Of a DNA stretch of 64,000 nt, positions 3,395 through 35,808 are shown piece after piece. A program made the position numbers and the translations under genes. Origin of the DNA: Leeuwenhoekiella sp. (GTDB lineage Bacteria > Bacteroidota > Bacteroidia > Flavobacteriales > Flavobacteriaceae); contig CBDCNG010000005.1 in assembly GCA_965219335.1 (NCBI GenBank), positions 121,992-185,991 of the forward strand. The letters run 5' to 3'. Under the pieces are notes generated by a model. It saw nothing but the letters and a program-made list of their open reading frames with translations, did not search any database and was not told the DNA's origin. The stretch's first letter is position 1. Every line of letters begins with the position of its first letter.

Positions 3395-4708
3395 TTACTG
3401 TTTCCCAGCACCTTGTTTATCTTGTTCAGTAGTTCCTTGAGCACCACCTCCATTTTGAAGGGCGTCAAGTTTTGCTTTGTATTCATCAGCTTTTGCCTGG
3501 TTGCCCAACTGGGTGTTAATGTTGAACAAAGTACGCATCACTTCTACATTTTTAGGATCGCTTGTTGCGGCCTTTTCCAAATAGGGAATTGCATCCTTAT
3601 AAATAGCCTGACGCTGTTTTTTAAGTTCGTCATACTTTTTATTATCAGCAGCAGAGGTTCCCAAACTGTTCATCTGGTCGACCAATTTTTTATCAGAATC
3701 TAAAACCAAGACTGCAGTATTTAGGTTTGCAATAGCGTTATCAGGATCAATTTTCAGGGCTTTGGCATAATATTCTTTAGCCTTATCAGTAGCTCCTGCG
3801 TTACCCGCGCTAATACCTAAACTCACCAAAAGATCGGGATTGTTGGGGTCTTTCTCCACAATCTTGTTCATAGTGGCATCAAATTTATCATTCATGCCAA
3901 GCTTACGATAGAGTTCAGCCTCATTTTTCATGAGCTCTACATCATCCGGATTTTTTTCACGTGCATCGGCCATGGCATCAAGAGCCTTTTGGTCTTCGCC
4001 ATTCTGCATATAAATAAGTGCGATTTTCTCAGCGATTTCTGGGCTTTTGGGTGGAGTTTTTTCAGTTTTGGGATCCTTATGGGTTCCCGCCTTAACAAAA
4101 AGGTCACGCTGAGCTTCAGTAGCGTAATTTTCGGTCTTTCCTGATTCCTTATTTACTGCGGTATATTTAGTTTCCACACCGCGATAGCCCAAATCTTTAA
4201 GTTTTAGATAATCTTTAAGGGCGGTATCATAATCTTTACCATTGACTGCGTTTGATGCTGCGTAATAAAGGTACACAGTGTCTTTTGGGCTCAGGTTATA
4301 CAATTTGGTCAATTTAGCGGCTGCGGCATCATATTTTTCAGCATTTTGATCCTCAACAGCGCTATTGATTGCCTTGTTGATGGCAACTTGTTTAAGCTCG
4401 GCAACTTCGTCACCATACTCTTTACCTTCATTGGTTTTTGAGGCCATTGCAAGGGCATCAAGAGCAGTATCCACTCCAGACATATCCTTTTCTCCGCCTA
4501 AATAGGTTTTAGCTTTCAGGTAGTAATATTCCTCTTTTTGCTCATCATCCATTTGAGCCATCATCCCTTCTAGACCATCAATTTCTGTTTTGGCCTCGGC
4601 ATAATTCTCCTTTCGAAGTGATTTATCTACGTTTCTCAACTCTTTCTTCTGCGCAAAAACAAATGCAGAGGCCGAGAGAGCAGCTGTAATTAAAATTTTG
4701 GTTTTCAT
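3395..4708 (-). CDS. Exported tetratricopeptide-repeat protein
   Basis: Signal peptide; several TPR-like units (AKEYYAKALKIDPDN, AIPYLEKAATSDPKN); directly follows gyrA. Confidence 0.85.
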   Translation of the reverse strand: MKTKILITAALSASAFVFAQKKELRNVDKSLRKENYAEAKTEIDGLEGMMAQMDDEQKEEYYYLKAKTYLGGEKDMSGVDTALDALAMASKTNEGKEYGDEVAELKQVAINKAINSAVEDQNAEKYDAAAAKLTKLYNLSPKDTVYLYYAASNAVNGKDYDTALKDYLKLKDLGYRGVETKYTAVNKESGKTENYATEAQRDLFVKAGTHKDPKTEKTPPKSPEIAEKIALIYMQNGEDQKALDAMADAREKNPDDVELMKNEAELYRKLGMNDKFDATMNKIVEKDPNNPDLLVSLGISAGNAGATDKAKEYYAKALKIDPDNAIANLNTAVLVLDSDKKLVDQMNSLGTSAADNKKYDELKKQRQAIYKDAIPYLEKAATSDPKNVEVMRTLFNINTQLGNQAKADEYKAKLDALQNGGGAQGTTEQDKQGAGKQ

Positions 4709-18145: not shown

Positions 18146-19921
18146 ATGGAAATTAAACGTCTTTTTGACTTCCCGCAATACCAGCTGGAGAATTATCCGC
18201 TACAAGAATCCCTGGTTACCAAATACAATGGGCAATGGAAGGCACTTTCCACCCAAGAATATTTGGATCAGGCCAATCAATTGAGTCGAGGACTTATAAA
18301 ATTGGGTGTCAAACCCAATGATAAAATCGCGGTCATCTCCACCAGAAATTGTACCGAATGGAATATTGTTGACATCGGTATTTTACAGATAGGCGCTCAA
18401 AATGTTCCTATTTACCCTACGATCTCCCAAGATGAGTATGAATATGTTCTCAATCACAGTGGGGCGATCTTTTGCTTTATTTCTGATGATGAAGTTGCGT
18501 CTAAGGTCAATCAGATCAGGAATAAAGTACCTACTTTAAAAGAGGTATATTCTTTTGAGACCTTAGAGGACTGTAAAAACTGGCAGGAAGTTCTGGAGTT
18601 GGGAAATGACAAAAGCGATCAAAACGAGGTCGAAAAACGTAAAAAAGAAATCACAGAGGAAGATCTTGCCACATTGATCTATACTTCAGGTACCACAGGT
18701 AAGCCCAAGGGAGTGATGCTCAGCCATAAAAACCTGGTAAGCAATGCCCTAAATAGTGAAACGCGGTTTCCTATACGAAAAGGAAAAGATAAGGCCTTGA
18801 GTTTCTTACCGCTCTGCCACGTTTATGAGCGCATGTTGATCTATTTATATCAATATACGGGGGTAGCGATTTATTATGCCGAAAGTATCGATGCGATCAG
18901 CGAAAACCTAAAAGAAGTCAGACCGCAAGTAATGACCGCAGTTCCGCGATTACTGGAAAAAGTTTATGAAAAAATAATCGCCAAAGGCGGCGAACTCACC
19001 GGAATAAAAAAGAAGCTTTTCTTCTGGGCGGTCGATGTGGGCCTTGATTATGAGCCGTATGGCAACAACGGCTGGTGGTACGAGCAGAAATTGGCGCTTG
19101 CGCGAAAGCTGATCTTCAGTAAATGGCAGGAAGGTCTGGGTGGAAACCTTAAAGTGATCGCATCGGGCAGTGCGGCGCTACAACCTCGCTTGTCACGCGT
19201 TTTTAATGCGGCCGGCATTGGGGTAATGGAAGGCTACGGACTTACCGAAACCTCACCGGTAATCGCTGTGAATGACATGCGTAACCATGGCTTTAAAATC
19301 GGTACCGTGGGCAAACCCATTCCGGAGACCGAAATCAAAATAGATGAAGATGGCGAAATTTTGGTCAAAGGTCCACAGTTGATGTTAGGATATTATAAAG
19401 ACAAAGAAAAAACCGAGGAGGCCATTGAGGATGGTTTTTTCCACACCGGTGATATCGGTGAGGTTGACGCCGAAGGTTTCCTCAAGATCACTGACCGTAA
19501 AAAGGAAATGTTCAAGACCAGCGGAGGTAAATACATAGCCCCTCAAATCATTGAGAATGCCATGAAACAGTCACGATTTATCGAGCATATTATGGTAGTA
19601 GGCGAAGGCGAAAAAATGCCAGGAGCAATTATTCAACCCAATTTTGAGTTTATACAGGATTGGGGACGTAAAAAGAACATCAAAGTAGGGGAAAACAATA
19701 AGGAAATCGCCAAAAACCCAGATGTTATCAAACGTCTAAAAGAAGATATAGATACTTACAATGAAAAATTTGGCCATTGGGAAAAGGTCAAACGCTTCGA
19801 ACTAACCCCTGATGAATGGACGATTGAAGAAGGCCACCTAACCCCTACTTTAAAACTTAAGCGCCGTGTGGTTAAAGAGCGGTACATTGATCTTTATAAT
19901 AAGATTTATGACCATAAATAA
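18146..19921 (+). CDS. Long-chain fatty acid-CoA ligase (AMP-dependent synthetase)
   Basis: YTSGTTGKPKG, EGYGLTETSP, FHTGDIG, TDRKKEMFKTSGGKY. Confidence 0.93.
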   Translation: MEIKRLFDFPQYQLENYPLQESLVTKYNGQWKALSTQEYLDQANQLSRGLIKLGVKPNDKIAVISTRNCTEWNIVDIGILQIGAQNVPIYPTISQDEYEYVLNHSGAIFCFISDDEVASKVNQIRNKVPTLKEVYSFETLEDCKNWQEVLELGNDKSDQNEVEKRKKEITEEDLATLIYTSGTTGKPKGVMLSHKNLVSNALNSETRFPIRKGKDKALSFLPLCHVYERMLIYLYQYTGVAIYYAESIDAISENLKEVRPQVMTAVPRLLEKVYEKIIAKGGELTGIKKKLFFWAVDVGLDYEPYGNNGWWYEQKLALARKLIFSKWQEGLGGNLKVIASGSAALQPRLSRVFNAAGIGVMEGYGLTETSPVIAVNDMRNHGFKIGTVGKPIPETEIKIDEDGEILVKGPQLMLGYYKDKEKTEEAIEDGFFHTGDIGEVDAEGFLKITDRKKEMFKTSGGKYIAPQIIENAMKQSRFIEHIMVVGEGEKMPGAIIQPNFEFIQDWGRKKNIKVGENNKEIAKNPDVIKRLKEDIDTYNEKFGHWEKVKRFELTPDEWTIEEGHLTPTLKLKRRVVKERYIDLYNKIYDHK

Positions 19922-20080
19922 ATTCGACCTTCAAAGTGTTGCCGACGGGAGGAGACCTCCATGTAGGTCTTGAATTTTCTCCAACTGCTATAATAGACCT
20001 ACAAGGATCCCTTTCCCGATTGTTATCGGGATCACTCATACATGCAGGACTTATAAAAAAATAAAAATTCACAGCTATTT

Positions 20081-20096
20081 ATTATGCATGCATAGT
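20081..20096. promoter_or_regulatory. Putative MarR operator
   Basis: Perfect palindrome TATGCATGCATA (20083-20094) about 35 nt upstream of the MarR-family gene. Confidence 0.6.
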
Positions 20097-20128
20097 ATTT
20101 TTTCATATTTTTACGATAACGTTAAAGT

Positions 20129-20584
20129 ATGAAAGATCTTACGATAGATTATGCCTTAAGGGCGACCTGGCAGGCCGTAACCAAAATGTATAACGAGCAG
20201 GCCTCTCAATTTGATAGTTCGATGGCTGTGGGCTTTGCGCTTTTAAGTATTGATGTTGAAGGCGGGACGCCATCCACCGCATTGGGGCCTAAAATGGGTA
20301 TGGAAGCCACAAGCCTTTCGCGTACCCTAAAATCCATGGAAGCACGCGGTCTGATAGAACGTCGTCCCAATCCTGAAGATGGTCGTGGTGTATTAATCTA
20401 TTTAACTGATTTTGGCCGGGAAAAACGTGCGTATAGCAAAGACAGAGTCCTCCGCTTTAATGAGGCGGTCAGGACATCGGTCACCGAAGAGCAAATGAAG
20501 CATTTTTTTGAAGTCATGCACAGTATTAATGACCTTATTCAGAACAAAAAGATTTATCCACAAGAAACGAAAATAAAACAATGA
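20129..20584 (+). CDS. MarR family transcriptional regulator of the beta-oxidation operon
   Basis: Winged HTH: ATSLSRTLKSMEARGLIERRPNPEDGRGVLIYLT; ATGA overlap with the next gene. Confidence 0.93.
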   Translation: MKDLTIDYALRATWQAVTKMYNEQASQFDSSMAVGFALLSIDVEGGTPSTALGPKMGMEATSLSRTLKSMEARGLIERRPNPEDGRGVLIYLTDFGREKRAYSKDRVLRFNEAVRTSVTEEQMKHFFEVMHSINDLIQNKKIYPQETKIKQ

Positions 20585-22989
20585 GCAAGAGAAGAATCAA
20601 TAAAGTAGCGGTTATCGGCTCTGGGATCATGGGGAGTGGCATTGCCTGTCATTTCGCTAATATTGGTGTTGAAGTCCTACTTTTGGATATTTTACCCAAT
20701 GAACTTACCGATAAGGAAAAGGCTGAAAATCTTACTTTAAAAAATAAAAGCGTTCGCGATCGCATTGCAAACGAGCACCTGCAGAGCGCTATTAATTCAA
20801 AGCCTGCCCCACTCTACCATAAAAATTTCGGTTCCCGGATAAAAACCGGCAATATTGAAGACGATATTGCTAAAGTAAGCGAAGTGGATTGGATTATCGA
20901 AGTCGTCGTGGAAAGGCTCGATATCAAAAAACAGGTTTTCGAAAATCTGGACAATCATAGAAAAGAGGGAACACTAATCACCTCAAACACTTCCGGAATC
21001 CCCATTCACTTGATGAATGAAGGCCGTAGCGAGGATTTTCAAAAACATTTTTGTGGAACACATTTCTTTAATCCTGCCCGTTATCTGGAGCTTTTTGAGA
21101 TTATTCCCGGACCCCAAACATCGCAGGATGTGCTGGATTTCTTAAACGATTATGGAGCTCGTTTTTTGGGTAAAACCCCGGTTATTGCCAAAGATACCCC
21201 GGCTTTTATAGGAAACCGCATAGGTATTTTCAGTATTATGAGCCTTTTTCATACCGTCAAAGAAATGGACATGACCGTGGAGGAGGTCGATAAACTGACC
21301 GGACCTGTTATCGGTAGGCCAAAGTCAGCCACTTTCCGTACCGTTGATGTCGTGGGGCTGGATACTTTGGTACACGTTGCCAATGGCCTTTACGAAAACT
21401 GCCCCGATGACGAGCGCCACGAGCTTTTCAAACTCCCGGATTTCATCGATACCATGATGGAAAAAAAATGGTTAGGCAGCAAGACCGGACAGGGATTTTA
21501 TAAAAAGGTCAAAAAAGAGAATGGCGATAGCGAGATTTTAACGCTCGACCTCGATAAAATGGACTACCGCGACGGAAAAAAAGCCTCTTTTTCCACGTTG
21601 GAAAAAACCAAAAGCATAGACCGTGTTGAAGAGCGATTTACCGTTCTCGTAGAAGGTGATGATAAGGCAGGTAAATTCTACCGAAAGAACTTCGGAGACC
21701 TTTTTGCCTACATACAAAACCGGATCCCCGAAATCACCGATGAACTGTACAAAATAGATGATGCAATGCGGGCCGGTTTTGGCTGGGGCGATGGGCCGTT
21801 CCAGATCTGGGATGCGCTTGGCGTAAAAAAGGGTATCGAACTCATAAAAGAACAAGGTTATGAAGTGGCCGATTGGGTCAACGAACTTGCAAAGAGTGGA
21901 AAGGATTCCTTCTACGAAATTAAGGATGGCAATACCTATTATTACGACATTCCCAAAAAGGAATATGTCAAAAAACCAGGTCAAGATGGCTTCATCATCC
22001 TCGATAATATTCGAAAATCCGCTGAGGTTTTCAAAAACAGCGGCGTGGTCATCGAAGATTTGGGCGACGGCATCCTAAATGTGGATTTCCAGTCCAAAAT
22101 GAATTCCGTAGGCGGGGATGTTCTCGCGGGGATCAATAAAGTGATTGAGCTGGCCGAAAAAAATCACGCCGGCGTGGTGATCGGCAACACGGGCAAGAAC
22201 TTTTCGGTAGGCGCCAATGTGGGGATGATCTTTATGATGGCCGTAGAGCAGGAATATGACGAGCTCAATCAAGCGGTCAAGTATTTTCAGGACACCTGTA
22301 TGCGCATCCGGTATTCTTCGATTCCCGTGATCGTTGCGCCACACGATATGACCTTGGGTGGTGGCTGTGAGATGACACTACACGCCGATCGCGTTGTCGC
22401 TGCCGCGGAAAGTTATATCGGTCTCGTGGAATTTGGCGTAGGCCTCATTCCCGGCGGTGGCGGTTCTAAAGAAATGACCGTTCGCGCCAGCGATACTTAC
22501 CATAAAGATGACGTGGAACTCAACCGGCTGCGCGAATATTTTCTCGCAATCGGGATGGCCAAGGTATCCACTTCGGCCTATGAAGCCTACGATACCGGCA
22601 TCCTCAAAAAAGGAAAGGATATCGTGGTTGTTAATAAGGCCCGCCAGATCGCTGCTGCGAAAGAAGTTGCAAAATTCATGGCCGAACAGGGCTACACCAA
22701 ACCCATTGAGCGCACCGATGTCAAAGTCCTCGGCAAGCAAGCATTAGGTCCTTTTTATGTGGGCACAGACCAGATGAACGCCGGAAACTACATCAGCGAG
22801 CACGACAAAAAAATCGCCAATAAACTCGCCTACGTCATGGCCGGCGGCGATCTTTCAGAGGCGTCTTATGTGAGTGAGCAGTATTTATTAGATCTAGAAC
22901 GTGAGGCATTCCTGAGCCTTTGTGGGGAACGGAAAACCCTGGAGCGACTTGAGCATATGATTAAGAAGAATAAGCCACTTCGTAATTAG
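20581..22989 (+). CDS. 3-hydroxyacyl-CoA dehydrogenase / enoyl-CoA hydratase (FadN-like)
   Basis: GSGIMGSG Rossmann motif, TSNTSG, HFFNPARY, C-terminal crotonase domain (LGGGCE, GLVEFGVGLIPGGGG). Confidence 0.95.
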   Translation: MSKRRINKVAVIGSGIMGSGIACHFANIGVEVLLLDILPNELTDKEKAENLTLKNKSVRDRIANEHLQSAINSKPAPLYHKNFGSRIKTGNIEDDIAKVSEVDWIIEVVVERLDIKKQVFENLDNHRKEGTLITSNTSGIPIHLMNEGRSEDFQKHFCGTHFFNPARYLELFEIIPGPQTSQDVLDFLNDYGARFLGKTPVIAKDTPAFIGNRIGIFSIMSLFHTVKEMDMTVEEVDKLTGPVIGRPKSATFRTVDVVGLDTLVHVANGLYENCPDDERHELFKLPDFIDTMMEKKWLGSKTGQGFYKKVKKENGDSEILTLDLDKMDYRDGKKASFSTLEKTKSIDRVEERFTVLVEGDDKAGKFYRKNFGDLFAYIQNRIPEITDELYKIDDAMRAGFGWGDGPFQIWDALGVKKGIELIKEQGYEVADWVNELAKSGKDSFYEIKDGNTYYYDIPKKEYVKKPGQDGFIILDNIRKSAEVFKNSGVVIEDLGDGILNVDFQSKMNSVGGDVLAGINKVIELAEKNHAGVVIGNTGKNFSVGANVGMIFMMAVEQEYDELNQAVKYFQDTCMRIRYSSIPVIVAPHDMTLGGGCEMTLHADRVVAAAESYIGLVEFGVGLIPGGGGSKEMTVRASDTYHKDDVELNRLREYFLAIGMAKVSTSAYEAYDTGILKKGKDIVVVNKARQIAAAKEVAKFMAEQGYTKPIERTDVKVLGKQALGPFYVGTDQMNAGNYISEHDKKIANKLAYVMAGGDLSEASYVSEQYLLDLEREAFLSLCGERKTLERLEHMIKKNKPLRN

Positions 22990-23001
22990 ATTTCTAATTA
23001 T

Positions 23002-23025
23002 AGAAAAAAGATAATAGAGAAAAGA
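23002..23025 (+). repeat. Left arm of 24-bp inverted repeat, 7-nt-periodic purine-rich array
   Basis: AGAAAAAAGATAATAGAGAAAAGA; AGA at 23002, 23009, 23016, 23023, 23030; 23/24 complementary to 23424-23447. Confidence 0.9.
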
Positions 23026-23057
23026 AAATAGAATAGAAATCGATTAATATCAATCAT

Positions 23058-23459
23058 ATGGAAAAGCGCAAGAGACACAACTACAAAAACTTGAAAATTT
23101 GGCAATTGGGTCTTGAAATCGCAAATGATTGTTCAGATATTTTACTTGATTTTCCAAAACATGAACGTTACGATTTAAGTTCTCAGATTAGCCGATGTTC
23201 CGTTTCTATAGCTAGTAATATAGCAGAAGGTTCTTCAAGAACCAATAAATCTTTTCACCATTATATTGATATTTCTTTGGGCTCTTCTTTTGAGCTCGGA
23301 ACACAACTTTTAATTGCTCGGCATAGAAAACACATTGATACTAAAACATTAAATCTATTGGAAAAGAAGATCGAAGAATGGCAGAGAATGACAATGAGTT
23401 TCCAAAATAAACTCGGCGGTACATCTTTTCTCTCTTATCTTTTTTCTTTTTTCCTTTAA
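23058..23459 (+). CDS. Four-helix-bundle protein (23S rRNA IVP / TIGR02436-like)
   Basis: HNYKNLKIWQ, FPKHERYDLSSQISRCSVSIASNIAEG, ISLGSSFELGTQL; the C-terminal tail is translated through the right repeat arm. Confidence 0.92.
   Translation: MEKRKRHNYKNLKIWQLGLEIANDCSDILLDFPKHERYDLSSQISRCSVSIASNIAEGSSRTNKSFHHYIDISLGSSFELGTQLLIARHRKHIDTKTLNLLEKKIEEWQRMTMSFQNKLGGTSFLSYLFSFFL
23424..23447 (+). repeat. Right arm of 24-bp inverted repeat, 7-nt-periodic pyrimidine-rich array
   Basis: TCTTTTCTCTCTTATCTTTTTTCT; TCT at 23424, 23431, 23438, 23445. Confidence 0.9.
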
Positions 23460-23469
23460 AAAATAAACC

Positions 23470-24662
23470 ATGCAAAAAACCGCATATATCGTTCAAGCTT
23501 ACCGCACCGCAGTAGGAAAGGCTCCCCGGGGAACTTTTCGCTTTAAGCGGCCTGATGAACTCGCTTCGGAAACCATTCAATATCTATTGGATAAAGTGCC
23601 GCAACTTGACAAAAAACGCATCGATGACGTGATCGTCGGCAATGCCATGCCCGAGGCGGAACAAGGGCTCAATATGGGAAGACTGATCTCCCTGATGGGA
23701 CTTCAAATAGAGGATATCCCTGGGGTAACCGTAAACCGCTATTGCGCGTCTGGTATTGAGACCATTGCGATGGCTTCTGCCAAAATACAGGCGGGTATGG
23801 CCGACTGTATTCTTGCCGGCGGGGCCGAAAGTATGAGTTATATCCCCATGGGCGGCTACAAACCCGTACCTGATTATAAATTGGCCGTTGAAGGTCACGA
23901 AGATTACTACTGGAATATGGGCCTTACAGCGGAAGCGGTAGCAAAACAGTTTAAGGTTTCTCGTGAAGAACAGGACGAATTTGCCTACAATTCGCATCAA
24001 AAAGCGATTAAAGCGCAGGCGGAAAACCGCTTTCAGGATCAGATCGTGCCCATTGATGTACATGAGACTTTTGTTAACGACTCCGGTAAAAAAGAGACGA
24101 GAACCTACACAGTCAATAAAGACGAAGGGCCGCGTAAAGATACCAGCCTGGAGGTTTTGGCCAAACTGCGCCCTGTTTTCGCCGAGGGCGGAAGTGTTAC
24201 CGCCGGAAATTCGTCACAAATGAGTGACGGCGCAGCTTTCACATTGATCATGAGCGAGGAAATGGTCAAAGAACTCCATATAGAACCCATAGCCCGTTTG
24301 GTCAATTATGCACCCGTGGGGGTTGAACCGCGAATAATGGGCATAGGGCCCATAAAAGCGGTTCCCAAAGCCCTAAAACAGCCGGAAAGGAGCTGAAAGA
24401 TATGGAACTCATAGAACTGAACGAAGCATTCGCCTCTCAGTCGGTTGCCGTGATTCGCGAACTCGGTCTGAACAAAGACATCGTAAACGTTAACGGCGGA
24501 GCGATTGCTTTAGGGCATCCGCTGGGTTGTACCGGCAGCAAACTATCGGTCCAGCTTTTTGATGAAATGCGCAAGCGCAACCTGCAAGGAAAATATGGTA
24601 TGGTCACCATGTGCGTGGGTACAGGTCAGGGAGCTGCGGGGGTTTATGAGTTTCTACAGTAA
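23470..24662 (+). pseudogene. Acetyl-CoA C-acyltransferase (thiolase) split by a 1-nt deletion near 24380 (true lesion or sequencing error)
   Basis: ORF 23470-24396 has VNRYCASG; ORF 24402-24662 has ELNEAFA, GHPLG and CVGTGQG. Adding one G (CAG GCC GGA AAG) restores [19 protein letters not shown], a 397-aa thiolase. Confidence 0.85.
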
Positions 24663-24665
24663 AAA

Positions 24666-24777
24666 GACATAGGACTTGAGGACGTAGGACTTAAGACTAA
24701 AAAAGCAGACTTTAACACAATAATCATAAAGGATAAAACACATGGGTCCTACGTCTTATGTCCTACCGTCCAAAGTC
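24666..24777 (+). repeat. ORF-less inverted pair of 7-nt-periodic arrays (GAC / GTC units)
   Basis: GAC at 24666, 24673, 24681, 24688, 24695; GTC at 24746, 24753, 24760, 24768, 24775 in mirror register; 23/32 Watson-Crick plus 2 G-U pairs; 48-nt loop. Confidence 0.85.
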
Positions 24778-24790
24778 AATTAAAGAAAAG

Positions 24791-26602
24791 ATGAGCACAC
24801 AAACACTAGAAAAAAAAGACCTGCTTCGCGGGGGCCAGTTTTTGGTCAAGGAAACCAAATGCGAGGATATATTTACCCCAGAAGATTTCTCTGAGGAACA
24901 GCAGATGATGCGGGATTCGGTAAAAGAATTTGTAGACCGCGAGATCATACCGTACAAAGAGCGATTTGAAAAGAAGGATTATGCCTTTACCGAAGAAGTT
25001 ATGCGCAAGGCCGGCGAACTTGGTTTTCTGGGCGTAGCAGTTCCCGAGGAATATGACGGCCTTGGGATGGGTTTCGTCTCCACCATGCTGGTCTGTGACT
25101 ACATTTCGGGTGCTACGGGATCAGTCGCGACCGCCTTTGGTGCACATACCGGCATCGGTACCATGCCCATCACCCTTTATGGAACCGAGGCCCAAAAGAA
25201 AAAATATGTACCTAAATTGGCCACGGGCGAATGGTTTGGCTCCTATGCGCTGACCGAACCCGGCGCCGGGAGCGATGCAAACAGCGGGAAAACAAAAGCC
25301 GTCCTCTCTGAAGACGGAACTTATTATTCCATTTCCGGGCAGAAAATGTGGATTTCCAATGCTGGTTTTTGCAACCTTTTCATCGTTTTTGCCCGGATTG
25401 GGGATGATAAAAATATCACGGGTTTTATTGTAGAAAACGACCCTGAAAATGGGATTTCGCTGGGTGAAGAAGAGAAAAAATTAGGTATTCACTCCTCTTC
25501 TACCCGACAGGTCTTTTTCAATGAAACCAAAGTTCCGGTAGAAAATATATTATCTGAGCGCGGGAATGGTTTTAAGATTGCGATGAACGCGCTCAACATA
25601 GGCCGGATCAAGCTCGCCGCTGCCAGTCTGGATGCACAGCGCCGCGTGATCGGTAATGCGGTCAAATATGCCAATGAGCGGATTCAGTTTAAAACGCCAA
25701 TCTCAAAATTTGGCGCCATCAGGCAGAAATTAGCCGAAATGGCAACGTCCGCTTGGGTAGGCGAAAGCGCCAGTTACCGTGCCGGTCATGATATTGAGCA
25801 GCGCATCAGTATCCGTCAGGAAAAGGGCGCTTCTCATCAAGAGGCAGAACTTAAGGGTGTAGAAGAATATGCCATTGAGTGTTCTTTATTAAAAGTAGCC
25901 GTTTCCGAAGATATCCAGAACTGTGCAGATGAGGGCATCCAGATTTTTGGCGGAATGGGCTTTAGTGCTGATACGCCCATGGAAGCGGCGTGGCGCGATG
26001 CACGAATCGCACGGATTTATGAAGGCACCAACGAGATCAACCGGATGCTCGCCGTAGGCATGCTCGTTAAGAAAGCGATGAAAGGTCATGTAGACCTATT
26101 GAACCCGGCACAGGCCGTGGCCGACGAACTGACAGGCATCCCCTCTTTTGAAATACCCGATTTCAGCGAAGTTCTTTCCGAAGAAAAAGCAATGATTTCC
26201 AAACTTAAAAAAGTATTCCTAATGGTAGCCGGCAGCGCGGTCCAGAAATTTGGCACGGAACTCGAAGAGCACCAACAAATTCTCTTAGCCGCAGCAGATA
26301 TTCTTATCGAGATCTATATGGCAGAAAGTGGAGTGCTCAGGGCAGAAAAGGCAGCTAAACGTACTGGTAAAGAATTAGTTGAAAAACAGATCGCTATGGC
26401 ACAGCTTTATCTTTATCATGCGGTTGACACCATTAACCAAAATGGGAAAGAGGCCATTGTTTCTTTTGCCGAGGGTGACGAGCAGCGTATGATGCTTATG
26501 GGTCTGAAACGGTTTACAAAATATCAAAATCAGCCTAATGTGGTCGCCTTGCGCAATGTGATAGCCGATAAAGTTATAAACGCCAATACCTATCCATTTT
26601 AA
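24791..26602 (+). CDS. Acyl-CoA dehydrogenase
   Basis: YALTEPGAGSDA, GQKMWISN, QIFGGMGF, RIYEGTNEI; ATG at 24791 preferred over 24758, which lies inside the repeat arm. Confidence 0.95.
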   Translation: MSTQTLEKKDLLRGGQFLVKETKCEDIFTPEDFSEEQQMMRDSVKEFVDREIIPYKERFEKKDYAFTEEVMRKAGELGFLGVAVPEEYDGLGMGFVSTMLVCDYISGATGSVATAFGAHTGIGTMPITLYGTEAQKKKYVPKLATGEWFGSYALTEPGAGSDANSGKTKAVLSEDGTYYSISGQKMWISNAGFCNLFIVFARIGDDKNITGFIVENDPENGISLGEEEKKLGIHSSSTRQVFFNETKVPVENILSERGNGFKIAMNALNIGRIKLAAASLDAQRRVIGNAVKYANERIQFKTPISKFGAIRQKLAEMATSAWVGESASYRAGHDIEQRISIRQEKGASHQEAELKGVEEYAIECSLLKVAVSEDIQNCADEGIQIFGGMGFSADTPMEAAWRDARIARIYEGTNEINRMLAVGMLVKKAMKGHVDLLNPAQAVADELTGIPSFEIPDFSEVLSEEKAMISKLKKVFLMVAGSAVQKFGTELEEHQQILLAAADILIEIYMAESGVLRAEKAAKRTGKELVEKQIAMAQLYLYHAVDTINQNGKEAIVSFAEGDEQRMMLMGLKRFTKYQNQPNVVALRNVIADKVINANTYPF

Positions 26603-26717
26603 ACTCCTGAAAATCGGCCCTCATCTTCCAAAGGGGAATCATAATTTTAGAAGAGTACATTCAAATTTTTATTTGAAATTAGGAGAAATTCTTTAATTAC
26701 ATATTGATAATGGAATA

Positions 26718-26751
26718 AGACCTCACAAGTTTCAGAGACCTGCGAGGTTTT
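26718..26751. terminator. Degenerate REP-like inverted repeat / terminator
   Basis: AGACCTCACAAGT-ttcagag-ACCTGCGAGGTTTTTT after the beta-oxidation operon. Confidence 0.55.
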
Positions 26752-26813
26752 TTCACACACATTTGTTTTTCGGGAACGGTTTTTGGTCTTTCGATTTACG
26801 ATATTGAAAACTT

Positions 26814-27683
26814 ATGATCATACTTAAGTATTTTTTTATAATCGGTTTTATGCTATCCGGCAGGAATATTTTCGCGCAAAGCGATGCCAATATCCTCCTT
26901 TTTGACATCGTTCAGCATAGGGATTCGCTTACGCTGACAAATGGAAAAGATATTTCCCAAAATACGGGCTATAATAACCAGCCAGCATTTATAGATGAAA
27001 ATAGATTGCTTTACGCCCGTAATCAAAATGGGCAGACCGACGTTGCTTTATATGATCTGACCAGCAAAAATACGTCAATTATCCATCCCACCATTATAGG
27101 CAGTGAATACTCCCCAAAATCCATTCCGGGAACAGACCATATATCAGCGGTACGCCTGGACACTAACGGACTTCAGAGGCTGTATGATTATTCTTTAAAA
27201 GACAGCACTACCGTAAAAATTTCTCAACTTAAAATAGGTTATTACGATTTTTACGATCAGAAGCGGATTTTGGCAACGGTACTTACCCCCATGGCCATGG
27301 ATCTCTATTTCATAAACTTAAAGACCGAAAAAGATAGTCTTCTTTTAAAAAATGTAGGCCGATCCATCCAGAAAATTCCCGGGACTAGATCCTTAAGTTA
27401 TACGCTTATAAACGAGGAGCAGCAACTTGATCTTTATCTATTAGACTTCAAAACTTTAGAAAGCTATTTTGTATGTACCCTGCCCATAGGGATCGAGGAT
27501 TACACTTGGCTAAACCAAAATCAAATAATATTAGGGAGCAGAAGCAAATTATTTATCTATGATTTGCTAATATCCAACGAGTGGGAAGAAATAGCCGATT
27601 TATCTAAAATGGGAATCAAAAATGTAACCCGTCTTGCGGTAAGCCCATCCGGTAAAAAACTGGCGCTTGCAGCAGAAAATTAA
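26814..27683 (+). CDS. Secreted TolB-like beta-propeller protein
   Basis: Signal peptide; GYNNQPAF, SEYSP, RLAVSPSGKKLA. Confidence 0.7.
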   Translation: MIILKYFFIIGFMLSGRNIFAQSDANILLFDIVQHRDSLTLTNGKDISQNTGYNNQPAFIDENRLLYARNQNGQTDVALYDLTSKNTSIIHPTIIGSEYSPKSIPGTDHISAVRLDTNGLQRLYDYSLKDSTTVKISQLKIGYYDFYDQKRILATVLTPMAMDLYFINLKTEKDSLLLKNVGRSIQKIPGTRSLSYTLINEEQQLDLYLLDFKTLESYFVCTLPIGIEDYTWLNQNQIILGSRSKLFIYDLLISNEWEEIADLSKMGIKNVTRLAVSPSGKKLALAAEN

Positions 27684-34656: not shown

Positions 34657-35661
34657 ATGTCATTCAAACTACTTTGCTGGAACATGGAATGGATGAACGA
34701 CCTTTTTGACGGAGAGGGCAGTTTCCGTCCAGATGATTATAAGCCACAGCACAATAAAAACACTACCGTTATTGCCCGAAGACAGGATTTGGCCGGTGTC
34801 ATCAATGAGATTGCCCCTGCTGCAGTGGTTGTGGTTGAGGGGCCCAACCGCACTAAAGAGTTGCAACTTTTTTTTGACTCTGATGTAAAAGGTACCTGGC
34901 AGACTTATATTCAGACAACCAAAGGATCTTCACAATGTGTGGGCATTGCCGTTAGAACCGATACCGGTATTTTTGATGAAACCATCCCATTAAAGACCTT
35001 TAACACCGCCATTGATCCAATTTTTGATGATTTTGAATTGGATAACGAGGATGATGGCATTACAGAAATCTATAAGTTTGAGCGGCGACCTTTATATATT
35101 GAGCTAAAACTCAAAAATGGGGAGCGCTATCGGGTTCTTGGCCTACATTTAAAGAGCAAGGGTATTTTTGATCTACTGGATTGGAGCAAATGGTGGGAAA
35201 GATCTATCGCAAACCGCAGAAAAATCTTTGCGAGTGCCGTGCATTTAAGAACTGAATTTATTGAGCCATACCTGGGCGATGAGGAAACCAAAAATATCCC
35301 TTTGATCGTTTGCGGTGATATAAATGATGGTCCTGGTTTTGACACTGCAGAAAAGAAAATACTGGGTAGCGGGGTAGAAAAACTGATGGGTGATATCTGG
35401 AATCCTTCCACTATTTTGGGAAATGCTATTTATGATACCTATCAAAAATTAGATGTCAGCACAACACGGTATGCCGATCCTATTTTTAATTTCAATTATA
35501 AATACCATTATGTGTGGATCGATCATATTATGTATTCAAAAAATAAAACGGATTGGACAAAAAACGGAACGATCCATGAAGATATGAAGGAAGGAAAAAT
35601 ATGGAACGTTTATCCCCATGCATCTGACCATAGCCCTATTTCTGTTGATATTGATTCTTGA
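34657..35661 (+). CDS. Endonuclease/exonuclease/phosphatase (EEP) family protein
   Basis: WNMEW, VVEGP, HLKS, VCGDINDGPG, WIDHI, SDHSPI. Confidence 0.88.
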   Translation: MSFKLLCWNMEWMNDLFDGEGSFRPDDYKPQHNKNTTVIARRQDLAGVINEIAPAAVVVVEGPNRTKELQLFFDSDVKGTWQTYIQTTKGSSQCVGIAVRTDTGIFDETIPLKTFNTAIDPIFDDFELDNEDDGITEIYKFERRPLYIELKLKNGERYRVLGLHLKSKGIFDLLDWSKWWERSIANRRKIFASAVHLRTEFIEPYLGDEETKNIPLIVCGDINDGPGFDTAEKKILGSGVEKLMGDIWNPSTILGNAIYDTYQKLDVSTTRYADPIFNFNYKYHYVWIDHIMYSKNKTDWTKNGTIHEDMKEGKIWNVYPHASDHSPISVDIDS

Positions 35662-35699: not shown

Positions 35700-35808
35700 A
35701 TATAAGCTTTAAAATTTATAAATATAGATTATAAGTTAATAAGCTTATAAAATTAATTTATAAGTTTTTGAACTTATAACAATATATCATAAGCTAATAT
35801 GCTTATAT
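35700..35808. promoter_or_regulatory. Array of four 22-bp palindromic operators, 29-bp period
   Basis: Consensus TTATAAGYT-N4-ARYTTATAA at 35700, 35729, 35758, 35787 with 7-bp linkers; the fourth overlaps the -7 element TATATTTG (35804-35811). Confidence 0.8.

Follow-up and report, generated by a model that had tools for sequence, protein, structure and literature searches.

The window (the whole 64 kb stretch of DNA analysed here) contains a four-helix-bundle gene of the PF05635/TIGR02436 family (IVP) placed between inverted arrays of about five heptamers, and the likeliest reading, which we hold with moderate confidence, is that of an IVS-type cassette acting at the RNA level. The gene (23058–23459, + strand) lies between a FadB-like and a thiolase gene, both of fatty-acid oxidation. 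Across about 250 loci compared, arms of this kind proved to be the rule for the family. The gene and its heptamer arms thus seem to represent a widespread type of element, the same unit being present in four or more bacterial phyla and also within 23S rRNA.

A Heptamer-Armed Cassette Between FadB-Like and Thiolase Genes

The left (5′) arm (23002–23036, + strand) consists of five purine-rich heptamers, with AGA at 23002, 23009, 23016, 23023, and 23030, and is separated from the ATG by a linker of 21 nt (23037–23057, + strand), longer than in most relatives, whose arm stops 0–10 nt from the ATG. The right (3′) arm (23424–23458, + strand) comprises five pyrimidine-rich heptamers complementary to the left arm, with TCT at 23424, 23431, 23438, and 23445, and TCC at 23452. 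Both the 7-nt units and the inverted repeat of the original prediction were recovered at the positions proposed. The repeat (23002–23025/23424–23447) spans 24 nt with one mismatch (96% complementary) and is the single inverted repeat of at least 24 nt with at most one mismatch within 600 nt in the entire window, the same criteria returning none in 20 dinucleotide shuffles. TRF detected a period of 14 (2 × 7) at 23000–23033 and a period of 7 at 23424–23457 and at 24666–24698. The predicted spacings also held, i.e., 12 nt from the FadB stop codon (22987–22989) to the left arm and 22 nt from the right arm of this repeat to the thiolase ATG (23470). A palindrome, TAATTAGA-tt-TCTAATTA, which the prediction had placed just ahead of the left arm, is indeed present at 22983–23000, but we rejected it as a part of the element and take it as incidental because the window has 19 such palindromes (2–8 in resamples), this one shares bases with the FadB stop codon, and relatives lack it.

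Between 10.5 and 35.6 kb, the ORFs of 180 aa or more include no transposase, integrase, or reverse transcriptase (RT), in agreement with what had been anticipated; those at 26814–27683 and 34657–35661 gave no Pfam match. There was no Rfam match at 20000–27000, and scans for sigma-70 promoters and intrinsic terminators showed no enrichment, the promoter model being ill-suited to Bacteroidota. A frameshift in the thiolase gene, considered as a sign of operon decay, was discarded since an independent contig has the missing G. For a precise comparison with an unoccupied site, no relative of the window organism closer than about 85–89% thiolase identity was found.

The Four-Helix-Bundle Protein

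The window protein is a member of the TIGR02436/PF05635 four-helix-bundle (23S rRNA IVP) family, matching PF05635 at 1.3e-28 (99.7 bits, cut-off 33.8) and TIGR02436 with 90.1 bits (cut-off 24). Its conserved core (residues 1–120; 23058–23417, + strand) is 75–83% identical to more than 100 Flavobacteriia proteins of 116–121 aa and carries the conserved R..S...SNIAEG family motif, with SRCSVSIASNIAEGS invariant or nearly so. The AF2 model (pLDDT 89.5) has four helices (13–29, 40–59, 63–89, and 95–119), and its best Foldseek matches were 2GSC (XCC0516, TMt 0.92–0.95) and 2RLD (BT_0352, 0.81–0.87), the two solved IVP structures, both of which contain five chains. As predicted, translation continues through the right arm, which yields the tail of the protein (GTSFLSYLFSFFL followed by the stop codon; 23418–23459, + strand), because this copy lacks the stop usually found after ...FQNGL(K). 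Homologues stop at about residue 117–120, and comparable read-through variants (133–135 aa) recur; the tail has pLDDT <50 in the AF2 model, and its sequence is identical in an independent Logan contig. No catalytic motif was recognisable in this four-helix protein of 120 aa, Pfam and PADLOC added no further match, and the PADLOC-DB defence models gave 0 families at E ≤ 0.01. With a dN/dS of 0.075, the IVP protein is under strong purifying selection.

The proposed kinship with the DGR accessory protein Avd is apparent at the structural level (TM about 0.7–0.9 to 4DWL and 8UB7 chains by Foldseek). Avd (bAvd) is a pentameric four-helix bundle, of a fold common to IVP, that binds the DGR reverse transcriptase and RNA, and this IVP-related pentamer sits in an RNA–protein complex structure. 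Sequence similarity is weak (PF22296, 4.7e-4), and the score with the Avd model (23 bits) falls below its cut-off of 80. The cassette has neither a nearby RT, within the ORFs surveyed above, nor a template/variable repeat pair, and heptamer arms are not a feature of DGRs. The candidate role as an Avd component of a DGR was rejected on the bit score and the missing RT.

Heptamer Arms in Flavobacteriia

The flanks of other four-helix-bundle genes, a check suggested with the original prediction, revealed period-7 inverted arms at about 150 Flavobacteriia cassettes, all within co-directional intercistronic spacers of housekeeping operons and all co-oriented with the host operon (98/98 and 58/58 cassettes, i.e., 156/156). 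This constant orientation suggests that the operon mRNA includes the cassette, which would have no separate promoter. Among 65 intact clade-A loci, the clade to which the window gene belongs, autocorrelation at lags 7 and 14 reached 0.40–0.44, other lags giving about 0.30 and the interior of the gene 0.25. Five units is the commonest length in these relatives, both for the uninterrupted AGA-every-7 chain and for the TCT-every-7 chain (40/65), a peak measured in clade A only; a stricter similarity measure over all clades gave 3–4 contiguous units. The 5′ arm has the higher purine content in 19/23 heptamer types (0.64 vs. 0.33), and the 3′ arm ends 10–25 nt before the ATG of the next cistron.

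The heptamer sequence is specific to the protein clade, so that the arms travel with the gene and not with the site. Clade A carries AGA arms at thl|ACAD, marR|fadB, fadB|thl, dapB|lepB, hmgA|hppD, sdhA|sdhB, proB|argF, and upstream of hutU, the fadB|thl placement being seen in the window only, and the fadB|thl spacer of other genomes is occupied by six other clades, each one with its own heptamers. Sharing of arm 6-mers was 0.13 for cognate pairs, 0.13 within clades, and 0.056 between clades. The self-contained cassette that had been proposed is borne out by one clade keeping its heptamer arms at no fewer than six operon sites and by different clades bearing different heptamers at one site. 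As far as can be read from sequence, these loci show that the arms and the ORF form a single unit in both inheritance and relocation.

These data also bear on a trivial explanation, namely that slippage-born heptamer microsatellites in AT-rich spacers lie beside an unrelated small gene by chance. Among the long SSRs of bacteria, heptamers are the commonest class, and work cited in PMC4679880 and PMC4692102 proposes slippage as their cause. Nevertheless, besides the Flavobacteriia IVP genes, period-7 arrays flank at least 20 IVP genes outside their phylum, a chain of at least 4 turns up in just 4/262 random 130-nt segments drawn from these loci, and the three period-7 arrays detected by TRF in the window all fall in the armed gene cassette or in the ORF-less element described below. 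Moreover, the heptamer sequence follows the protein clade. A coincidence is effectively refuted and we give it almost no credence.

An ORF-Less Element of Another Clade

Downstream in the window, a second pair of arms surrounds a loop of 46 nt without an ORF (24700–24745, + strand). The left arm (24666–24699, + strand) has GAC at 24666, 24673, 24681, 24688, and 24695 in TAGGAC/TAAGAC units, the right arm (24746–24779, + strand) has GTC at 24746, 24753, 24760, 24768, and 24775, and the RNA of 24666–24779 folds with −33.6 kcal/mol (z = −4.9). The original prediction had taken this as an empty element (24666–24777); the element is real and an ORF-less relative, but it belongs to another clade. 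Specifically, arms nearly identical to the left one flank full “L045-type” IVP genes (loci L117, L118, L123, L152, L156, and L129), and the right arm is nearly identical to that of L152. The TAGGAC type was not found in loci L001–L093 and is present among metagenome loci selected by thiolase. On sequence grounds, the element is a remnant of a cassette from a different clade than the gene cassette of the window. Its right arm lies upstream of the acyl-CoA dehydrogenase start at 24791, probably the true start, as ACAD homologues align from there.

Gain, Loss, and Inheritance

Comparison with operons lacking the ORF, another check proposed at the outset, did uncover unoccupied spacers. Among operons selected for the similarity of their thiolase, IVP genes were present at fadB|thl in 27/70 and at thl|ACAD in 31/72, both spacers being short and unoccupied in 12/64; a related Flavobacterium has a thl|ACAD spacer of 35 nt. 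This patchy occupancy, together with the unique placement of the window's clade-A gene between FadB and thiolase, indicates that the element has moved, as the predicted spread between sites implied. No clear target-site duplication was seen when occupied and unoccupied spacers and their boundaries were compared by eye. The loci also show, to judge from what the remnants retain, that frameshifts and internal deletions reduce copies to ORF-less heptamer hairpins, whose loops keep the last codons of the ORF and its stop codon, and in one case (L094) both ORF ends. ORF-less derivatives occur at other sites, also as tandem doubles, and hairpin copy number differs between close relatives. About 15/80 copies are disrupted, many operons have no IVP, and ORF-less remnants are common, so IVP is dispensable.

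A nearly neutral insertion, as originally envisaged, does not fit the selection acting on the protein or its inheritance. At thl|ACAD, the commonest site, the gene tracks host divergence and is thus mostly vertical, the protein equals the flanking enzymes in conservation, and the same spacer has been occupied long-term across Flavobacteriaceae genera. Such conservation and long residence would be expected from a domesticated host regulator, in which a TRAP-like IVP ring binds the heptamers of the operon mRNA and tunes translation or stability of the neighbouring cistrons (in the window, thiolase and acyl-CoA dehydrogenase) to the benefit of the host, mobility being only its ancient origin. The constant orientation along operon transcription, the 3′ arm just upstream of the next ATG, the five-unit arms matching a protein that is pentameric by its solved relatives, and the differential expression of an IVP gene of F. 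psychrophilum in biofilm (PMC5787105) point in the same direction. The likeness to TRAP is purely conceptual, i.e., n ring subunits binding n tandem repeats beside a start codon, while TRAP itself is a beta-sandwich 11-mer of unrelated fold that reads triplet repeats. We regard domestication as possible, though doubtful; it is opposed by the dispensability just described, by host operons as unrelated as beta-oxidation, accBC, sdhAB, dapB-lepB, cas, and 23S rRNA, which argue against a pathway-specific role, and by the decaying ORF of Coxiella (PMC4990558).

Pairing of the Arms

The arms of the window cassette pair in the predicted minimum-free-energy fold, in which its 24-nt terminal inverted repeats would form a long stem around the insert, the z-score of the whole-region fold being only −1.6. 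In clade-A loci, the duplex energy was −27.3 kcal/mol vs. −18.1 for shuffled arms, in stems that are A/U-rich and typically only 75–85% complementary. No locus-specific compensation was detected, cognate arms scoring 15.2 and non-cognate clade-A arms 14.2, with the cognate arm as strict best partner in 2/65 clade-A loci. Since cognate and non-cognate arms pair equally well, locus-specific covariation of the stem was discarded and compensatory evolution is not claimed. The asymmetry of G.U over A.C mismatches, considered as a signature of sense-RNA pairing, was likewise dropped, being not significant (36 vs. 26, p = 0.25). In view of these results, the pairing potential may be a by-product of the shared repeat motif. 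One cyanobacterial cassette (L084) has direct arrays instead of inverted ones.

What is conserved is the inverted repeat motif and not a base-pair-specific complementarity, which would suit a DNA-level mobile element whose inverted heptamer arrays act as iteron-like terminal or sub-terminal binding sites on dsDNA, recognised by an IVP oligomer or by a recombinase encoded elsewhere, with the RNA stem incidental and the ORF-less hairpins as MITE-like non-autonomous copies. ORF-less derivatives at other sites and in tandem, the variable copy number, and the presence of one clade at many sites with patchy occupancy also fit. Against this stand a small protein devoid of recognisable catalytic motifs, inheritance that is mostly vertical, and the lack of target-site duplications by eye and of any transposase, integrase, or RT within about 12 kb. 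In addition, the 156/156 co-orientation and the purine-5′/pyrimidine-3′ polarity are strand-specific and unexplained by a symmetric dsDNA site. We consider this reading unlikely and favour the cassette acting at the RNA level.

Other Phyla and Known Elements

Outside Flavobacteriia, 14 cyanobacterial loci share the cassette design, as does Gemmatirosa (Gemmatimonadota), while Xanthomonas and Rhodanobacter (Xanthomonadales) have a cassette with GGGAATC/GATTCCC arms at accB|accC. A true 23S rRNA IVS of Azospirillum contains an IVP ORF with AGAGGAC/GTCCTCT arms. The IVS-like nature originally proposed is thus supported by a shared heptamer-arm design, seen also in the GACAGAT repeats of the Coxiella IVS, where RNase III cuts at the first repeat (PMC4990558). 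The ORF-bearing 23S rRNA IVSs (Leptospira, Coxiella, Xanthomonas-type, “S23p”/IVP) have in common with the window cassette the protein family, a long stem of terminal inverted repeats with the ORF in its loop, the heptamers adjoining the ORF, and the absence of an associated mobility gene. They differ in their location, since the window copy lies in an mRNA intercistronic spacer between protein-coding genes and not in a 23S rRNA helix (H9, H25, or H45), and RNase III excision has been demonstrated for rRNA IVSs only. Furthermore, the Coxiella IVS ORF is decaying and apparently untranslated (PMC4990558), whereas the window-type protein is under strong purifying selection.

By their TRF periods of 7 and 14, the arms belong to the heptamer tandem repeats (STRR/long SSR), which are period-7 arrays in intergenic or intra-operon positions, often as inverted pairs (PMC4692102, PMC4679880). 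Families of unexplained role include GGGAATC in Xanthomonas, with 70–75 convergent inverted pairs, GGGGA(C/T)T and STRR in Nostoc/Anabaena, and TAACTGA in Beggiatoaceae, cyanobacteria, and Bacteroidetes (PMC4692102, PMC4679880). These papers treat them as stand-alone arrays (G-quadruplex or regulatory sites) with no link to IVP, yet a Xanthomonas IVP gene (XCC0516 family) is flanked by exactly the published GGGAATC/GATTCCC repeat. We found no paper describing a general association of IVP genes with heptamer arms. REP/BIME and MITEs resemble the cassette in their hairpin repeats in operon spacers, in their ORF-less copies related to a coding one, and in possible effects on mRNA stability. In contrast, the cassette has no RAYT or transposase, shows no target-site duplication by eye, and its arms are tandem 7-nt arrays and not a unique palindrome, the coding copy specifying a small non-enzymatic bundle protein. 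A REP/BIME-RAYT system was rejected on the tandem arrays and on the absence of a Y1 transposase in the region examined; of the MITE/IS features, the inverted arms are present, with no target-site duplication evident by eye and no transposase nearby, though an enzyme acting in trans may be encoded outside the 64 kb of the window.

Proposed Mechanism and Significance

For the cassette acting at the RNA level, pairing of the arms in the fadB–IVP–thiolase transcript would give a stem of about 24–30 bp (about −27 kcal/mol) with the ORF in its loop and the cistrons on either side drawn close to each other. By analogy with rRNA IVSs, this stem would likely be a substrate of RNase III. When unpaired, the A-rich 5′ arm would serve as the translation-initiation region of IVP. 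A pentameric IVP could bind the repeated heptamers, one subunit per unit, and this putative binding would control either the pairing switch or the synthesis of IVP. Movement between sites would be rare, probably via recombination between heptamer arrays or hairpins and not by a dedicated transposase. A bolder proposal, to which we give only tentative credit, is that PF05635 proteins and heptamer arrays might be one unrecognised pan-bacterial element, whose pentamer ring would read about five of its own clade-specific 7-nt units in the transcript, controlling expression and driving persistence and spread. If true, one mechanism would cover three puzzles, i.e., the ORF-bearing 23S rRNA IVSs, the heptamer families of Xanthomonas, Nostoc, and others, and the “cas-associated” IVP genes in CRISPR operons.

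PF05635/TIGR02436 is among the larger families annotated only as “four helix bundle protein,” with thousands of members in each of two single-query searches, and heptamers, which outnumber all other long simple repeats of bacterial genomes, have no accepted function. The link between the two across at least four phyla, including a classical 23S rRNA IVS, makes both puzzles directly testable. It also allows the IVP genes of cas, acc, sdh, and fad operons to be seen as passengers instead of pathway components, and ORF-less heptamer hairpins to be annotated by a simple rule. Should the pentamer indeed read clade-specific repeats, it would be a compact, programmable binder of repeat RNA or repeat DNA.

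The window cassette and its protein

A beta-oxidation operon lies on the + strand of the window, with genes, all on that strand, for an acyl-CoA synthetase (18146-19921), a MarR regulator (20129-20584), a fused 3-hydroxyacyl-CoA dehydrogenase/enoyl-CoA hydratase ("FadB-like," 20581-22989), a four-helix-bundle IVP of 133 aa (23058-23459; PF05635 at 1.3e-28; TIGR02436 at 90 bits, cut-off 24), a thiolase (23470-24662), and an acyl-CoA dehydrogenase (ACAD; probable true start 24791, end 26602). The IVP ORF is enclosed by a 24-nt inverted repeat with one mismatch (23002-23025/23424-23447), the sole one of such quality within 600 nt across the 64 kb of the window; no comparable repeat arose in 20 dinucleotide shuffles. 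Both arms consist of 7-nt units (heptamers), with AGA at 23002, 23009, 23016, 23023, and 23030 on the left, and TCT at 23424, 23431, 23438, and 23445 followed by TCC at 23452 on the right; Tandem Repeats Finder gives a period of 14 (2 × 7) for the left arm and 7 for the right one. All distances given around this cassette in the original prediction were correct. The palindrome that it placed near the FadB stop is present (22983-23000, over the stop codon), but it is not unusual in this genome and unconserved, and was therefore set aside. Two records from a soil metagenome (run X2) agree, on thin evidence, with the left boundary of the cassette: one, a 155-nt contig from a related IVP cassette (compared with window positions 22997-23140), matches from ca. 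22997, the left-arm start, and the other diverges from the window at 22998.

Three further features of the window were noted. The thiolase gene appears as two ORFs (23470-24396 and 24402-24662) split by a 1-nt frameshift (region 24376-24402), and in an independent Logan contig (run X1) one additional G after 24380 brings the two back into frame, so the frameshift probably reflects misassembly or a minor variant rather than a pseudogene. The longest acyl-CoA dehydrogenase ORF (region 24758-24793) begins at ATG 24758, within the right arm of a second, ORF-less element, and ATG 24791, from which the homologues align, is the likely true start. Lastly, a 29-nt A/T-rich unit, TTATAAAAATAAATTATAAGTTAATAAGC, is repeated in tandem in intergenic DNA at 35716-35807 (3.2 copies, 69% matches).

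The AlphaFold model of the window IVP, built on 22 homologues (pLDDT 89.5), has four helices and a disordered tail (residues 123-133). Structurally it comes closest to XCC0516 (2GSC, TM 0.92-0.95) and BT_0352 (2RLD), the two family members with solved structures, which have five chains each; the DGR protein Avd and the Avd-RT-RNA complex rank next. Against the Avd family model the protein scores 23 bits, far under the cut-off of 80, so it is an IVP rather than an Avd. More than 100 Flavobacteriia homologues are 75–83% identical to it, nearly all stopping at residue 116-121; the window IVP has 13–14 extra C-terminal residues because the usual stop codon is absent and translation continues through the right arm. 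The read-through sequence is identical in an independent contig from the same sample, and akin variants recur elsewhere.

Heptamer arms accompany the gene family

Among 80 fetched genomic loci encoding close relatives of the window IVP (clade A), nearly all carry AGA-type heptamers upstream and TCT-type ones downstream, with conserved inner ends (...ATAGAC(T)-ATG and stop-(A)GTCTAT...). Over the 65 intact loci, arm identity at lag 7/14 is 0.40–0.44, versus ~0.30 at other lags and 0.25 within the gene, the arm duplex reaches −27 kcal/mol (−18 for shuffled arms), and uninterrupted units peak sharply at five (left arms 29/65, right arms 40/65), such chains being almost absent from random pieces of the same loci. 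At the sequence level, the arms belong to the gene family and not to the window locus, and it is hardly credible that they accompany the gene by coincidence. Several Flavobacterium species (L027, L029, L031, L034, L050, and L058, ~3930-4010) have a ~65-nt insert between the left arm and the ATG of the thiolase|ACAD IVP, possibly an internal promoter or some other small insertion.

Clade-A cassettes with AGA arms were found at thiolase|ACAD (47 loci), dapB|lepB (8), hmgA|hppD (7), sdhA|sdhB (2), upstream of hutU (2), marR|fadB (1), and proB|argF-like (1), and at FadB|thiolase in the window only, one of roughly 125 operons. The FadB|thiolase spacers of other genomes contain different IVP clades, 35–44% identical to the window protein, each with its own heptamer (CTAGA-type, TTAATAC-type, TGTATAT-type, ATCTAAn, and others). 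Arm 6-mer sharing is 0.13 for cognate and same-clade pairs versus 0.056 between clades, and arm similarity correlates with IVP protein identity. Judging by these comparisons, arms and ORF travel as one unit with a clade-specific heptamer sequence. The window copy is an ordinary member of this class, except for its unusual site and lost stop codon.

In a second sample of 80 orthologous operons, picked by thiolase similarity and not by IVP, an IVP gene was present in 27/70 FadB|thiolase spacers and in 31/72 thiolase|ACAD spacers, clade A being found at the latter only, and both spacers were short and unoccupied in 12/64. All 58 of these IVP genes were co-oriented with the operon, as were 156/156 Flavobacteriia cassettes in both sets combined. 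The thiolase|ACAD spacer is just 35 nt in a relative of L027 (one of the Flavobacterium loci), and hairpin copy number differs among close relatives. From this patchy occupancy, the unique window site, and the differences in spacer and copy number, we infer that the element is gained, lost, and occasionally relocated. That it does so as a transposon-like element acting at the DNA level seems rather improbable; the absence of a nearby mobility gene, as originally stated, was borne out for the ORFs of ≥180 aa from 10.5 to 35.6 kb, none resembling a transposase, integrase, or reverse transcriptase. IVP identity at thiolase|ACAD follows the host (94% where ACAD identity is ≥95%, 88% at 90–95%, and ~75% beyond), with a median dN/dS of 0.075 (345 pairs). 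The protein is functional, mostly vertically inherited, and under purifying selection, in contrast to the Coxiella 23S rRNA intervening sequence (IVS), where the ORF is decaying.

ORF-less hairpins as remnants

In many spacers, left and right arms enclose a short loop instead of the ORF, sometimes as tandem doubles, and these loops retain the last codons of the ORF and its stop codon (in L027, cAGACTttGTAAAGTCTATTTTCTATACTCTAT in the hairpin and gGACTgaaGTAAAGTCTATTTTCTATACTCTAT where the full cassette ends). One locus, L094, is intermediate and keeps both ORF ends, and ~15/80 clade-A copies have frameshifts or premature stops, isolate genomes included. As read from these series, copies decay to ORF-less hairpins. 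The window element has five GAC units in its left arm (24666-24699) and five GTC units in its right arm (24746-24779), separated by a loop of 46 nt, with a fold z-score of −4.9. Its arms are near-identical to those of full IVP genes from another clade (L117, L118, L123, L129, L152, and L156), which marks it as the ORF-less remnant of a second, different cassette. The core of the original prediction holds: the window carries a self-contained cassette of the IVS-like kind and, close to it, a related element that lacks the ORF.

Other arrangements were seen in these operons. At FadB|thiolase in L016, L046, L012, L049, and L033, an ORF-less hairpin stands directly upstream of a full cassette with the same heptamer, with right-arm sequence on both sides of the ORF, and such composites suggest recombination between arrays. 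An unrelated family of G+C-rich twin hairpins (gcccccTAgcccccAAAGGGGGa ... tcccccTTCGGGGGcTAGGGGGc, ~100–170 nt, strong folds, z down to −11) occupies FadB|thiolase or thiolase|ACAD spacers in L002, L008, L010, L026, L105, L133, L146, L147, L151, L161, L171, and L173, and two more hairpin families (ggaacacagatt.../...aatctgtgttcc and gtcattccgacgaaggagg...) were seen as well. This beta-oxidation operon is, in its spacers, a hot spot for hairpin repeats.

Cassettes in other phyla and in 23S rRNA

A tblastn search against plasmids gave 29 records, 16 of which were examined. Inverted heptamer arms flank IVP genes in Nostoc (TAGGGAG, GGGAACA, GGGTGTG, GGGGAAA, and TCAGGAG), Stanieria (GGCAGAA), Picosynechococcus (GGAGATA, between cmr2 and cmr3), Anabaena 90 (CAGGTGA, between cas6 and cas4), Gemmatirosa (GGCAGGA), and also Geminocystis, Aulosira, and Leptolyngbya. 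Arms are weak in L085 (Calothrix). In L082 (Nostoc PCC 7120), where an ISL3 transposase lies immediately upstream, just the right arm is still clear. In Xanthomonas and Rhodanobacter, the XCC0516-type gene lies between accB and accC and has GGGAATC/GGGATTC at one flank and the complementary sequence at the opposite one. An Azospirillum match falls within a genuine 23S rRNA gene (2533 bits against Rfam) with arms AGAGGAC GGATGAC AGAGGAC GGAGGAC and GTCCTCT GTCTTCT GTCATCC GTCTTCT, the rRNA IVS thus sharing the ORF and heptamer-arm architecture of the window cassette. The 5′ arm is the more purine-rich in 19/23 heptamer types (0.64 vs. 0.33, p = 0.003), a conserved, strand-specific polarity. The only clear exception to the inverted arrays is L084 (1340-1980, Pseudanabaena galeata plasmid, cas6|IVP|cas4), with direct arrays of CTAAAAG (×15) upstream and CCAAAAG (×10) downstream.

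Several of these cassettes, on cyanobacterial plasmids, lie within CRISPR-Cas operons (L084, L086, and L087; between cas6 and cas4 in two genera, and between cmr2 and cmr3). IVP genes in cas loci have been read as cas-associated (PMC3936711); given their heptamer arms, they look like passengers.

A possible RNA-level mechanism

The arms, which pair in the MFE fold, would form a stem in the operon mRNA and thereby loop out the IVP ORF, and by analogy with rRNA the stem could be an RNase III site. The A-rich 5′ arm, when unpaired, may serve as the IVP initiation region, which would fit Bacteroidota, whose initiation regions are A-rich and not Shine-Dalgarno-based; left arms in other phyla often contain GGAG/AGGA. 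An IVP pentamer might then bind the five heptamers. We lean only slightly toward this RNA-level cassette, because neither locus-specific compensation between arms nor a G.U bias in arm mismatches was found, both counting against the stem, as do the direct arrays of Pseudanabaena. A domesticated TRAP-like regulator, which overlaps partly with the RNA-level cassette, is unlikely. The processing and recognition steps of that cassette are offered as hypotheses.

In Coxiella, 3–4 GACAGAT repeats, variable in number among strains, lie just upstream of the S23p ORF of the IVS, and RNase III cuts at the first one (PMC4990558). Arrays of GGGAATC in Xanthomonas, including 70–75 convergent pairs, and of GGGGA(C/T)T in Nostoc have been described as possible G-quadruplex repeats, IVP genes being unmentioned (PMC4692102). 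The literature likewise offers no explanation for TAACTGA repeats or for the heptamer elements of Geobacter. Within the literature searchable without subscription, we found none linking the IVP family with heptamer arms in general. As a class, these cassettes thus seem to be undescribed, and they connect several unexplained observations.
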